Of a DNA stretch of 4,313 bases, positions 1 through 4,313 are shown in pieces (the first letter of the stretch is position 1; every line of letters starts with the position of its first letter). The translations under genes were made by a program, and so were the position numbers. This DNA is from a virus. Taxonomy: Duplodnaviria; Heunggongvirae; Uroviricota; Caudoviricetes. Location of the stretch: the IMG/VR virus record IMGVR_UViG_2671180637_000018. One strand, 5' to 3'. The notes under the pieces are model-generated. The model searched no databases, had not been told where the DNA came from, and saw nothing but the letters and a program-made list of their open reading frames with translations.

Positions 1-968
1 CCCAGCGTCACGTTATTCGTGTCATACCAGCTGGAGAACTTCTCCAGAATATTAATAAGCGGATTATCCTTCTGCCCCTGCGGCGCACCGGCGATATATT
101 CAAAGGCCTTTTCGGTATCAAGGTCACTTTCAATCGTCGCTGCATACATGGCTTTCACAATGGCCGACTGAAGCTGTGTTGCCTGCAGGGAATCCAGCAT
201 CTTCAGCCGTTCCATGACGCTGTAAAACTGATTAGCCCCACGGGTCTGCCCGTCCTCCACCGGCTCGAAAATATGCAGCATGGCCGGACGCCCGGTGGGT
301 AGTTCACGCGGGATCCGTTCCCATCGTCCACTCCCGGAGAACGGAAAATCATCCTCACAGATATGGTACGCAACGGCACGGCCATATCGATCGACCTCCA
401 CCCCGGCCCGCAGAAAACGGTTCCCCATACCGTGTCCTGGCGTGTCCACCCGTTTCGGACTCACGGCTTTAAAACGCGTACGGAATAACTGCGTGGTTTC
501 CGTATCCCAGACCGGCTGCACAAAGATTTCGCCGTTAAACGCATGAACGCCCACACCTTCACGGATAAATTCCGTGAACGTGCGTTTTCCTTCCACGTCG
601 ATCTCGCCAGACATCCCTTCGGCGTATTCCGACCAGGCCGCCTCCACCTCATCGACAAAGCTTTTTGCTGCGGTCTCCCGCATCCCCAGCCAGCGCCAGT
701 TCGGACGGTAGCTGATAAGAAACATATGCCCGACAATGTGATCCTTATGCAGGGCCACCGCATTGGCCGCTATTCCGTTATTGCGCACCAGATCATCTGC
801 CCGGGCATTCCCCAGACGCAACGCGGGCAGCAGGGCCGCATCGGCACTCTGCGCCGGTGGCAACCACTCCGCCATTTGCCCGCCAAATCCTGCACCGCCC
901 CCGTTGTAGCTGAGACTCTCACGAAGCGGAACGCCGTTCACATCAATCAGGACAGGCGTTCGTTTCAT
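1..968 (-). CDS. B: portal protein (lambda gpB-like), partial: N-terminal ~322 codons, C-terminal part beyond window start
   Basis: Minus-strand frame open from ATG at 968..966 to position 1 (not in the ORF track because it runs off the edge). Manual translation MKRTPVLIDVNGVPLRESLSYNGGGAGFGGQ...NARADDLVRNNG...HIFEPVEDGQTRGANQFYSVMERLKMLDSLQATQLQSAIVKAMYAATIESDLDT matches lambda gpB blocks as recalled. GAGG Shine-Dalgarno just upstream; ATG overlaps the gpW stop (ATGA), as at the lambda W/B junction. Confidence 0.85.
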   Translation of the reverse strand, partial: MKRTPVLIDVNGVPLRESLSYNGGGAGFGGQMAEWLPPAQSADAALLPALRLGNARADDLVRNNGIAANAVALHKDHIVGHMFLISYRPNWRWLGMRETAAKSFVDEVEAAWSEYAEGMSGEIDVEGKRTFTEFIREGVGVHAFNGEIFVQPVWDTETTQLFRTRFKAVSPKRVDTPGHGMGNRFLRAGVEVDRYGRAVAYHICEDDFPFSGSGRWERIPRELPTGRPAMLHIFEPVEDGQTRGANQFYSVMERLKMLDSLQATQLQSAIVKAMYAATIESDLDTEKAFEYIAGAPQGQKDNPLINILEKFSSWYDTNNVTL

Positions 969-1171
969 AACCTCACTCCCAGCGGACGACGGCGACGCCG
1001 GGTTGTCCCCAGTACCGACTCCGCATCATTGATCGCCCGGTTAAGCTCATCCAGAGAAGCCGCCGTATATTCAATTCTGCGACCATCTTTCTGGACAGAC
1101 ACCACCCGTTTACCGGTTAATAAATCAAGGCGCGCCTGACGCAGCGCCTGCAGTTCAGCGACTGTAACCAT
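965..1171 (-). CDS. W: head completion / head-tail joining protein (lambda gpW-like)
   Basis: 68-aa [71 protein letters not shown]; same length as lambda gpW with the conserved TGKRV.VQKDGRR core. Strong GGAGGA Shine-Dalgarno 4 nt upstream of the ATG; sits between terminase and portal as in lambda. Confidence 0.85.
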   Translation of the reverse strand: MVTVAELQALRQARLDLLTGKRVVSVQKDGRRIEYTAASLDELNRAINDAESVLGTTRRRRRPLGVRL

Positions 1172-3083
1172 TCACTCCTCCGGACAGCTTCGCTGCCAGT
1201 TCTTTCAGGGTTGGCCGGGTCGTCTCTTCTTCCCGGGATTTTGCCAGTACAGCCAGATCAAGCTGCCAGCGTTGCACGGACACACGTAATGCCGCGTAGG
1301 CATACACCAGGCAGTCCAGCGCTTCGTTACGCCGCTTTTTGTTATCCCACAGCAGACGCATCTTTCCTTTTTCCCACTTCTCCACCAGCTCTTCCGCCAC
1401 CAGTTGCTGCGCCTCTGTCTGCGAAAAAATCTCCGGATCATCAGGAAAACGGATGGCATACGACGTGGCTTCATCCGCAGGCGAGGGATCGGCTTTCATA
1501 CGGGCATAGAGAATTTCTTTTGCGGTGTCCGTTCCCACTTCACACAGATACACGCCCCGCTGATTGCGGGTTTTTGGCATGGTGATCACCGGCTTGCCAT
1601 AGACAGATGCGCCTTTTACCGGCAGCACCCGGAAAACACCGTGTTTTTTTGATCTCTGATAAACAATTTCACCATCGATCCCCCCGGTGTCCCAGCAGAC
1701 ACGGGAAATAGTCATTTCGGTGCCATCCGCATGGCGGTATTTTTTGTTGATCGCCGCATCCACACGTAACAGCGTCTCTTCCTCATCAGGACGCCCCATA
1801 ATGATGATTTTATCCACCAGAAAGGCTTCCTCTCCCGGAGCCCATCCCCAGACATACATCTCAAAACGGTTTCGCTGCGAGTCAATGCCCGCCGTCAGAT
1901 AAACCACCCGGGCAGGCACCGCCGCCGTGTAACGCACCACCTTATCCATCAGTACCTGGTGATCGAGTTTTTCGCCCACGGCCTCTTCCCAGGTCTCGCC
2001 CAGCGTGGTGTTCACAAAGGTTTTCAGGCCGTTGGGATCTTTCAGTGCATCCAGCCAGTCATAGACAATCTGTACCCAGGTGGTGAACGGACTGTACGCC
2101 GTCCAGATATGGAAAGTGATGGAGCGCGGCGGCGGAATTTCATTACCCGCAGCGCTGAAAAACGTCAGGCCGTCACGGGTCCACATGCCCGTGTTTTCAC
2201 AGATCCACCGCCCGTTGTTCTGGTCCAGTTCAGACTGATGGATCACGCAGCCATGATGTTCACAGAGGTAGAAAACGCTTTCGGGACTGTCCTTCTCCCA
2301 TTTAAGCCCAAAAGGCGTGGACTCATCGCCAAATTTCAGATACTGCGCCTCCCCACAGTGCGGGCAGGGCACATAAAAACGCATGAAATGCGCCGACTCG
2401 TTGGCCGCTTTTTCGATCTGGCAGGAGCCTTTGATTTTAGGAGTCGAGCCGCGAATGGATTTGGGCCATACAGAGCCCTCAATACGTTTATCCCCCAGCA
2501 GGGTTGGCGAACCCTCTTTTTCAACATCCGGTTCGAACGAGGAAAGCTCGTCATAACAGACCACATCCACGGATTTTTCACGGTAGTTTTTTGCTGCCGC
2601 TCCCCCCAGACACCAGAAACCCACACCGGAGGAAAAACGCTTCAGGGTGAGCGTATTATCGCGGTGTTTTCTTCCGAACCATGGAGCCAGCTCCAGCAAC
2701 GCAGGAACCTCCCTTATCGTTGGCTCAACATGAGATTTCATAAAATCTTCAGCAGCTGAGTCCGTGGGCTGAAAAAGAAGGCTGTTGCGTGATTTATGCT
2801 CAATAAAATAAGCCTCCACTCCCAGCAACATCTTTGTATAACCAACACGGGCAGATTTAATCAGGTTAACAGTGCGAATCAAATCGTTGCCCATACAGTT
2901 CATGATGCCAACCTGAAACGGCAGTGTTTCCCACCGCCCCGGGGTATAAGACGACTCTTTAGGAAGGTAATAATGTTTATTGGCCCACTGAACTGTCGTC
3001 AGTGGAACAGGAATAATGAGAGATAAAAGCCCTGTTGCTATCGCACCGGCTGCATTAGCTGCCTTCTGCGCGTCTGAAATCAT
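1155..3083 (-). CDS. A: terminase large subunit (lambda gpA-like)
   Basis: 656-aa track ORF (1155..3125) collinear with lambda gpA over its full length: [103 protein letters not shown]. Start placed at the second in-frame ATG (3083..3081, MISDAQK...), which aligns with the lambda gpA N-terminus, has a GGTGGA-like SD upstream and gives the lambda-like 29-nt overlap with the Nu1 3' end; the ATG at 3125 has no SD. Confidence 0.9.
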
Positions 3084-3603
3084 CGATCCACCCGCCCACG
3101 TTTTCACCGGCCTTAGCTGAAACATTGGAGGCTTTCGCGATTTCAGTTTTCACCACATCAAGGTGTGATGGTGAAATGTCCGGATATTTACGCTGTAATG
3201 TCAACGGCACACGCACAAGTATCCCCGAAATCTCCTGTGCCACACGTTGCAGAATGAAGGTAAACAGTTCAGTTTCCAGCACTACTCCGTCTTCACGGGC
3301 ATTTTTCAGTTCCTGCGCATCTGCCTGCGCTTTTGTGAGCCGGTAGCGTTCATAGTCAATGGTGCCGGGTTGTAAATCTGACTCCGCTGCCGCACGCAAA
3401 TCGTCCAGTTCTTTGCGGAGCTTTTCGTTTTCGATATCAGTTTCCCTCTGCGCATACCACTGAATTGCCATGGCAGTATCAAATACAGATTCAATGCCCT
3501 TACTACCTTTGGAGGCGCAAGGGAGTCCCTGAGACTGCCAGCGTTCAATCGTCCGCGGGTCCACGTTGAAAATTTCGGCAAGCCTCTTTTTATTAACCTT
3601 CAT
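3055..3603 (-). CDS. Nu1: terminase small subunit (lambda gpNu1-like), DNA-recognition subunit
   Basis: 182-aa [31 protein letters not shown]...[29 protein letters not shown] matches lambda Nu1 (MEVNKKQLADIF...RTIQNWQEQGMP...[28 protein letters not shown]) as recalled. Lies immediately downstream of the cos site and overlaps the gpA start, as in lambda. Confidence 0.9.
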
Positions 3604-3630
3604 GAAAACAACCCATTATCAAATACAAGG

Positions 3631-3642
3631 CCCGACATGAAA
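3631..3642 (-). promoter_or_regulatory. R1-like Nu1 binding site (cccgacatgaaa; minus-strand core CATGTCGG)
   Basis: Forms a perfect 11-bp inverted repeat with 3670..3680 (ccgacatgaaa / tttcatgtcgg); closest repeat to the Nu1 start (about 29 bp), the position of lambda R1. Confidence 0.6.
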
Positions 3643-3669
3643 ACGCCAGAAAAAGGCATTTTCGGACAC

Positions 3670-3680
3670 TTTCATGTCGG
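3670..3680 (+). promoter_or_regulatory. R2-like Nu1 binding site, inverted relative to R1 and R3 (tttcatgtcgg)
   Basis: Inverted partner of 3632..3642; orientation opposite to the other two copies, as for lambda R2. Confidence 0.6.
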
Positions 3681-3689
3681 ACCTTTACG

Positions 3690-3726
3690 GATGCAATATT
3701 AAAAAAAACAAAAAGTTATATTCGAG
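3690..3726. promoter_or_regulatory. A/T-tract region, candidate IHF (I1-like) bending site between R2 and R3
   Basis: gatgcaatattaaaaaaaacaaaaagttatattcg; positional equivalent of lambda I1 (AACTTAATGTTTTTATTTAAAATA) and similar on the minus strand (ATATAACTTTTTGTTTTTTTTAATATTGC). No exact IHF consensus verified. Confidence 0.4.
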
Positions 3727-3731
3727 AAGTA

Positions 3732-3739
3732 CCGACACG
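3732..3739 (-). promoter_or_regulatory. R3-like Nu1 binding site (ccgacacg; minus-strand CGTGTCGG)
   Basis: Third copy of the core with one mismatch, same orientation as R1, at the position corresponding to lambda R3. Confidence 0.45.
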
Positions 3740-3779
3740 ATTTTCCCTGAAAAATTTTCATAAATAGTGAAAAACCGCG

Positions 3780-3791
3780 AGGTCGCCGCCC
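3780..3791 (-). other. cosN: 12-bp cohesive-end site (minus strand 5'-GGGCGGCGACCT-3')
   Basis: Plus strand aggtcgccgccc at 3780..3791 is the exact reverse complement of the lambda cohesive end, with lambda-like flanks on both sides. Confidence 0.85.
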
Positions 3792-3835
3792 CGTAACGGT
3801 CTGGATCACCGGAAAGGACCCGCCAACGACTTTCG
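3792..3835 (-). other. cosQ-containing segment (right-end side of cos)
   Basis: Plus strand cgtaacggtctggatcaccggaaaggacccg closely resembles the reverse complement of the lambda right end (GGGTCCTTTCCGGTGATCCGACAGGTTACG, from memory). Exact cosQ bounds not determinable here. Confidence 0.55.
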
Positions 3836-3849
3836 CGTGCAGGCATTAA

Positions 3850-4003
3850 AAATTTTGCAGTTCCATGCCTAGTTGAAACCTCGATTTCTATAACATCCAA
3901 TTTTGTAAATTTAGATATAGCTCAACTTTTCCCAATGTTTTCAAGTGTATAAAAACAATTGGCGTTACGCCATAACACTATACTTAGGATAAGTAAAGAT
4001 TTT
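3850..4003 (+). promoter_or_regulatory. AT-rich leader likely carrying the promoter/operator for the plus-strand accessory genes
   Basis: Visibly AT-rich non-coding stretch upstream of a strong RBS. Several weak sigma70-like hexamers (TTGAAA 3873..3878, TTGTAA 3903..3908, TATAAA 3948..3953, TATACT 3979..3984), none with a convincing -35/-10 pairing at 16-18 bp, so the promoter is not pinpointed. Confidence 0.25.
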
Positions 4004-4009
4004 AAGGAG
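4004..4009 (+). promoter_or_regulatory. Shine-Dalgarno (AAGGAG) for ORF 4015..4266
   Basis: aaggag followed by a 5-nt spacer and ATG at 4015. Confidence 0.55.
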
Positions 4010-4014
4010 TTTTA

Positions 4015-4266
4015 ATGAGTCAACATCAATATTATCCACAGCTGAAATGGAAGCCTGCTGAATATGAATCTCTGATGCTTTTAGATCAAACTACGCTCTC
4101 TGGTTTTACTCCGATCATTACCATTCCAGACATAGACTGGGATTATGAAAACGAATGCTACAAGAAGAGTTTGAGTTCTTACTTATCTGACTTCGGTATT
4201 AACCTTGCGGCATCCTGGAAAGCCAATCTGATCTTACCCAGCAATAGTGGACACGCGGCTAAGTGA
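4015..4266 (+). CDS. hypothetical small protein (83 aa), first gene of AT-rich accessory cassette; family not recognised
   Basis: ORF MSQHQYYPQLKWKPAEYESLMLLDQTTLSGFTPIITIPDIDWDYENECYKK... with a strong SD at optimal spacing. AT-rich codon usage unlike the phage structural genes; plus strand, opposite to the late operon. Ends at TGA 4264..4266; the next ATG (4294) is in the same frame. Confidence 0.55.
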   Translation: MSQHQYYPQLKWKPAEYESLMLLDQTTLSGFTPIITIPDIDWDYENECYKKSLSSYLSDFGINLAASWKANLILPSNSGHAAK

Positions 4267-4281
4267 GTAAACTCTCAGTCA

Positions 4282-4287
4282 GAGGTG
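4282..4287 (+). promoter_or_regulatory. Shine-Dalgarno (GAGGTG) for downstream gene
   Basis: gaggtg 6 nt upstream of ATG at 4294. Confidence 0.4.
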
Positions 4288-4293
4288 ACTCAC

Positions 4294-4313
4294 ATGACAA
4301 AAACAGTATCAAC
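4294..4313 (+). CDS. hypothetical protein, 5' end only (MTKTVS...), continues beyond window
   Basis: ATG with a good SD 27 nt after the stop of the upstream ORF, same strand and same frame; only 6 codons visible. Confidence 0.35.

Follow-up and report, generated by a model that had tools for sequence, protein, structure and literature searches.

The window analysed here is the whole 4313-bp contig CYEI01000065.1 of assembly GCA_001285545.2. Its minus strand carries a lambda-type packaging module made up of the portal gene (cut), gpW (W), the large terminase subunit (terminase A), and Nu1. Upstream of Nu1 lies AGGTCGCCGCCC, the reverse complement of the phage lambda cohesive end (cos), GGGCGGCGACCT. 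This exact lambda-type cohesive end has lambda-like flanks and is separated by 177 nt from the Nu1 start codon, and, judging from these motifs, the prophage appears to retain a cos site. From the placement of cos and the packaging genes, the open reading frame (ORF) that starts at 4015 belongs to a lambdoid prophage, in which it occupies the slot for accessory genes that separates cos from the lysis genes, and it has a G+C content of 0.40 vs. 0.54 for the packaging genes. As a separate observation, the longest start of the large terminase ORF on the minus strand is at 3125 (656 aa), whereas its annotated homologues and the gene call of the contig use 3083 (642 aa), a start that overlaps the stop of Nu1; such uncertainty about a start codon is commonplace.

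Read from the sequence, the plus-strand ORF comprises 83 codons, from ATG 4015 to the TGA at 4264..4266, and after this stop there are nine sense codons (GTA AAC TCT CAG TCA GAG GTG ACT CAC, or VNSQSEVTH) before an ATG at 4294..4296 that shares the frame of the first one (4294 − 4015 = 279 = 93 × 3), with AGAGG at 4281..4285, 8 nt 5' of this second ATG. The preliminary description had reported this arrangement, including a Shine-Dalgarno (SD) sequence belonging to ATG 4294, and we confirmed its coordinates and frames as well as the presence of that SD. The frame shared by the ORF and the ATG has a chance expectation of 1 in 3 and is therefore statistically unremarkable. The features of the stretch are collected in Table 1.

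Table 1. Features in and beside the 4015..4313 stretch of the 4313-bp window (IRL and IRR, left and right inverted repeats of IS3; nt, position within IS3).
Feature	Position	Strand	Evidence
5' part of the beta family protein gene (71 of 355 codons and 1 further base)	4015..4228	+	100% identity to WP_000077907.1 (L001, strain DA33133); PF14350
ATC at the left border of IS3, one copy of its 3-bp target-site duplication	4226..4228	.	Right junction on L010 (CYBQ01000077.1); single ATC in the intact allele
IS3 left end, first 85 bases; contig stops within the repeat	4229..4313	+	100% identity to K-12 IS3
IS3 IRL, ~39 bp, imperfect	4229..4267	+	K-12 IRL vs. reverse complement of IRR, matches through ...CTAAG(T/C)GAG
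TGA, IS3 nt 36-38; closes the chimeric ORF and bounds the orfA frame on its 5' side	4264..4266	+	Within block CTAAGTGAGTA
Predicted RNA hairpin GUGAGU..CUCU / AGAG..ACUCAC	4263..4293	+	Folding; -12.6 kcal/mol
AGAGG, Shine-Dalgarno of IS3 orfA	4281..4285	+	Sequence; CAGAGG invariant among aligned IS3-like ends
IS3 orfA start (insE; MTKTVS...), cut by the contig end	4294..4313	+	K-12 transposase CDS start, L002 (K-12) 1670 = window 4294
cos cohesive-end sequence	3780..3791	-	Reads GGGCGGCGACCT on the minus strand, the phage lambda cohesive end

The upstream ORF is the remnant of a beta-family gene. Its 83-aa product matches Pfam PF14350 (Beta_protein) with 29.3 bits, just above the Pfam gathering threshold of 27 bits that served as the cut-off, over residues 6-70 and profile positions 1-60 of 342; the full-length domain (about 340 positions) is absent from the remnant, which has 71 of the 355 residues before the insertion sequence (IS). 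In a megablast search with positions 3800..4313 as the query, 124 of 5426 complete E. coli genomes matched at least 80% of the query, and among the matches listed, each is 100% identical over window 3800..4228 (query 1..429) and no further, and all fall under genes annotated as "beta family protein". The intact gene of strain DA33133 (locus L001) has 355 codons, encodes WP_000077907.1, and bears the same annotation. When compared base by base with this allele, the window follows it through ...GGAAAGCCAATC (4228) and is unrelated beyond that point, and the two proteins are identical over residues 1-71 and match nowhere thereafter; over the longer window 1..4228, gapped blastn against the DA33133 locus gave 97.35% identity with one indel. 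The tail of the chimeric ORF consists of 12 residues (LILPSNSGHAAK), counted from the junction codon and otherwise encoded by the IS. The RefSeq entry of the 83-codon ORF, WP_053901486.1, which is named "beta family protein", represents a pseudogene fragment that was truncated by an IS and gained a foreign tail of 12 residues, and at 71 residues the window allele is presumably non-functional, the truncated protein having presumably lost its function. A promoter scan of 3600..4313 returned no sigma-70-like plus-strand site 5' of 4015, which leaves expression of the truncated ORF unsupported.

The downstream part belongs to IS3, a member of the IS3 family of about 1258 bp that transposes by a copy-out/paste-in mechanism and carries orfA (insE) and orfB (insF), which are joined by a -1 frameshift into OrfAB. 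Positions 4229..4313 are identical in 85/85 bases to the left end of K-12 IS3 (TGATCTTACCCAGC...; TGATCTTACCCAGCAATAGTGGACACGCGGCTAAGTGAG...). The 89 bases at 4225..4313 occur at 15,504 places in 4286 of the 5426 complete E. coli genomes, with a median of 3 places per genome, and these matches lie under the annotation "IS3-like element IS3 family transposase". The assignment to IS3 rests on a left end identical to the reference, on terminal inverted repeats beginning with 5'-TG, and on IRL/IRR pairing over ~39 bp. The ATG at 4294 is IS3 nt 66, namely, the orfA start, and the corresponding K-12 CDS is flagged as "programmed frameshift". In the window, 85 of the 1258 bases of IS3 are visible, and the contig ends 20 bases into orfA. 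IS3 begins about 440 bp from the cohesive-end sequence. In the phage collection, the region was found in no record, the single hit being an IS3-like stretch with a 90% match on a fragment of a Salmonella phage.

The same junction was found, by exact look-up of the chimeric 83-aa product, on two further contigs, CYBQ01000092.1 (L005) and a metagenome contig (L003), both of which are identical to the window over 4015..4313 with 0 mismatches. Past the window end, they continue into IS3 for 9 bases in L005 and 55 in L003 (all 55 identical to IS3), and both stop within about 100 nt of the ORF stop, inside the IS. The identity of 4264..4266 in these two contigs and in K-12 IS3 also excludes a sequence error at the stop codon, a possibility that the preliminary description had raised. 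The junction is known from these 3 draft or metagenome contigs only, with 0 occurrences among the 5426 complete E. coli genomes, and its pattern had 0 matches among species-representative genomes (one genome per species), as expected. That the window contig breaks off after 85 bases of IS3 is most likely an effect of short-read assembly, which normally fails at repeats present in many copies.

The far side of the element was approached by predicting right-junction ORFs on the assumption of a 3-bp duplication and then looking them up in the protein collection, where all three predicted ORFs were present. The 289-aa product MGRINRPVLL..., which starts in the IS3 right end, has an exact match there, and this fusion is obtainable only from an IS3 end followed by ATC and the remainder of the gene. 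The contig that encodes it is CYBQ01000077.1 (L010) of assembly GCA_001284265.1, which also contains L005. The first 92 bases of L010 belong to the IS3 right end, with 1 mismatch to K-12, and after them come ATC and then GTCCTGTTTTG...; the 900 bases after ATC, spanning the rest of the gene, show 3 mismatches vs. the intact allele, and further on there are a cII-like (sce7726/P4 cII-like) gene and lysis genes that match the gene order of the intact locus. ATC is therefore present on the left (window 4226..4228 and L005) and on the right of the element (L010, where the junction comes from sister assembly GCA_001284265.1 and not demonstrably from GCA_001285545.2 of the window), whereas the intact allele has a single one, which makes ATC 4226..4228 the target-site duplication and points to a simple IS3 transposition.

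We propose that IS3 entered codon 72 of a 355-codon P4-beta-like gene located beside cos in a lambdoid E. coli prophage, the insertion point being between 4228 and 4229 and the duplicated target triplet being ATC. Such a simple insertion would place the IS3 right end (...CGTGGGTAGGATCA) directly before ATCGTCCTGTTTTGCTGGATG at the far junction. Translation of the truncated gene would run 12 codons beyond the break, into the IRL, and halt at the IRL TGA, and the next ATG, 27 bases on, would be the normal orfA start with its own ribosome-binding site. The shared frame would follow from the phase of the insertion, which leaves one host base in the junction codon, and the host gene would be inactivated, with 71/355 residues left and nothing recoded. 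We regard it as highly probable that an IS3 insertion truncated this cos-adjacent prophage beta-like gene, with ATC duplicated, the frame shared by phase, and the host gene inactivated. Among the options considered in the preliminary description, that of two genes sharing a frame came closest, since the two coding sequences are indeed unrelated and their common frame is a matter of chance, but the IS end had gone unrecognised. The event is an ordinary gene disruption of an already known kind, that is, IS3 itself in a new site.

One may ask whether, in the window's own genome, an IS3-mediated deletion or inversion took away or displaced the 3' part of the gene, or whether the contig end is an assembly chimera, given that the contig ends inside the IS, with the far side outside the window, and that the complete E. 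coli genomes (5426) lack the junction. We consider this quite improbable, because the identical junction occurs in three assemblies and the sister assembly supplies the corresponding right junction, in which ATC is duplicated and the genes beyond are those expected. In addition, the accession of the 281-aa remnant, CTU87061.1, belongs to one series with that of the window product, CTU90772.1, which weakly links GCA_001285545.2 to the right junction.

A longer ancestral gene split by a point nonsense mutation at 4264..4266, with a restart at ATG 4294, was another option of the preliminary description, and it was right insofar as the upstream ORF really is a fragment of a longer gene, being its first 71 of 355 codons; moreover, the same beta gene is split by a nonsense change in other strains (L006 and L009; G203A, TGG to TAG, 67 + 281 aa). 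What broke the gene here, however, is IS3 at 4228/4229, and the downstream ATG is that of orfA: the window and the intact allele diverge wholly from 4229 on, not at one base, and all that comes after 4228 is IS3, the TGA and the ATG included. A nonsense split needs a homologue continuing as ...ANLILPSNSGHAAK-x-VNSQSEVTHMTKTVS, and it is refuted by the base-by-base alignment with the intact allele, so that we give it a negligible probability. The intact 355-aa gene matches the upstream part only; no single long homologue extends across the stop, and two separate genes with an intergenic spacer, the pattern that the preliminary description had set against continuity, do not describe what the homologues show either.

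The stop codons before orfA are a property of the IS3 end itself. All frames incoming from the left close before orfA, at TGA nt 1-3, TAG nt 17-19, and TGA nt 36-38, of which only the last is in the orfA frame. Given this three-frame closure, whenever IS3 inserts so that the junction codon contains one host base, the host ORF acquires the tail (x)ILPSNSGHAAK and ends at a TGA, and the orfA ATG follows in frame after nine sense codons. The TGA-27 nt-ATG arrangement is also present in K-12 IS3 with other flanks and in three diverged plasmid IS3-like left ends. In an alignment of nine IS3-like left ends (78-100% identity), eight of which were parsed by script, the block CTAAGTGAGTA is invariant in 9/9, and frames close at nt 1, 17, and 36 in 8/8 of the parsed relatives. 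Nevertheless, in 4/8 of them the conserved TGA has been shifted off the orfA frame by indels of 1-2 nt, and in the ninth end (EcO26), outside the script parse, the TGA appears in frame by eye. With the block invariant and the frame variable, it is the terminal-repeat DNA that is conserved, and not the frame relation. The predicted hairpin at 4263..4293 holds the TGA in its 5' arm and the orfA SD in its 3' half. Folding predicts a comparable hairpin for 8/8 of the parsed IS3-like relatives, with no compensatory changes; its 43-nt core has z = -1.55, not significantly better than shuffles, and the fold of the whole 4229..4313 segment has z = -0.21.

Programmed UGA readthrough or selenocysteine insertion joining the 83-codon ORF to the downstream ORF, the remaining option of the preliminary description, would fit two in-frame ORFs with a single TGA between them and a predicted hairpin that overlaps and follows the stop, but it finds no support and is scarcely credible, since no homologue spans the stop and the intact 355-aa homologue is unlike anything after 4228, what lies downstream is IS3 orfA, which has an SD of its own, K-12 IS3 carries the same TGA and ATG in other flanks, the TGA lies off the orfA frame in half of the parsed IS3-like ends (4/8), so that the frame relation is not under selection, Rfam gave no match to the window, SECIS included, and the hairpin (z = -1.55) does not stand out from shuffles in stability. 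On the comparison with homologues, the frame variation, and the negative Rfam search, it is rejected.

In the phase of this insertion, one regulatory consequence may be entertained, namely, that translation of the host gene up to the TGA could open the SD hairpin and couple to orfA initiation, thereby tying the IS3 protein levels at this copy to prophage gene expression; we judge this speculative model unlikely. If coupling were true, it would amount to an unrecognised external activation route of IS3 or, alternatively, to repression via OrfA. OrfA has been reported to be inhibitory to IS3 transposition. In practice, the significance of the locus lies mainly in its correct annotation, the downstream ATG belonging to IS3, and it also carries a caution for sequence-only scans: an ORF stop near a strong start at the end of a draft contig often means a gene entering the terminal repeat of an IS.

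The disrupted gene is part of a cassette that is whole in other strains, and this is the mildly interesting side of the locus, given that the cassette is related to known anti-phage systems. At the intact locus (L001 4716-6345), the beta-like gene (355 aa) faces a convergent sce7726/P4 cII-like gene (206 aa), with lysis genes beyond; the 3' ends of the two genes overlap by 59 nt, and the G+C content of the cassette is 0.42 vs. 0.54 for the neighbouring phage genes. The intact beta allele matches the PADLOC models PD-Lambda-2_C (4e-32) and "beta" (3.5e-10), with no NCBIfam match on this protein, and its convergent neighbour matches PADLOC "cll" (8e-31), NCBIfam sce7726 (7.9e-54), and Pfam Phage_P4_cII. 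We took as a complete set either gop, beta, and cII, or a HigB-like A, an Xre-peptidase B, and a beta-like C. Neither the full gop-beta-cII nor the full PD-lambda-2 set is present at L001: from cos to the lysis genes, it carries a beta-like and a cII-like gene and no further ORF longer than 71 aa, it lacks a gop-sized ORF (gop being judged by ORF size and annotation), and its annotation lists neither a HigB-like nor an Xre-peptidase partner. The cassette was found in 124 of the 5426 complete E. coli genomes.

Other broken alleles of the beta gene were also seen. The G203A change affects W68 (L006 5779-6846 and L009 46-1113), alleles at L006, L009, and L008 (3314-4380) also include a 1-base deletion at nt 195 (80 + 281 aa), and the protein collection contains further N-terminal beta fragments that break off at residue 79, at residue 81 (with two different foreign tails), or at residue 92. 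The GKVRIS... tails look like another IS end. There is, then, repeated independent inactivation of the beta gene across several E. coli lineages, in a sampling that favours early lesions and does not imply a hotspot.

Compared with IS3 of Escherichia coli as already described, the element in the window has the same IRL, SD, and orfA start and the same 3-bp target duplication, and its visible part shows no difference; only the insertion site, codon 72 of a beta-family gene, is novel. In K-12, too, an IS3 copy disrupts a prophage gene, ren. That copy (L002 1595-2870) has AATC directly to its left and ACC to its right, without a clean 3-bp duplication, and it may have undergone recombination between IS copies. 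With respect to other elements, IS transposase genes are shielded from outside translation and transcription, for example by fold-back inhibition in IS10 and IS50. IS3 resembles this IS10/IS50-type protection in that its repeat has stops in three frames 5' of the transposase start and its predicted hairpin includes the SD, and by this analogy one may ask whether the three-frame stops or the SD hairpin protect orfA from outside translation. However, the IS3 hairpin is not statistically distinctive, and its conserved bases double as the transposase-binding repeat, so that their conservation may be unrelated to translation.

As for the disrupted cassette, the gop-beta-cII locus of P4 adjoins cos and protects against lambda and P1 (PMC9122126), and PD-lambda-2C, for which a relationship to a P4 phage antitoxin has been described, is needed for defence (PMC9519451). 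The cassette differs from PD-lambda-2 in being without the HigB-like and Xre-peptidase partners, and the likeness consists in the match of the C component. It differs from P4 gop-beta-cII in lacking gop and in residing in a lambdoid prophage, not in a P4 satellite, while sharing with it the PF14350 beta-like and cII-like genes as well as the cos-adjacent position (PMC9122126). By analogy, this two-gene cassette may be a minimal variant of the gop-beta-cII/PD-lambda-2C anti-phage systems.
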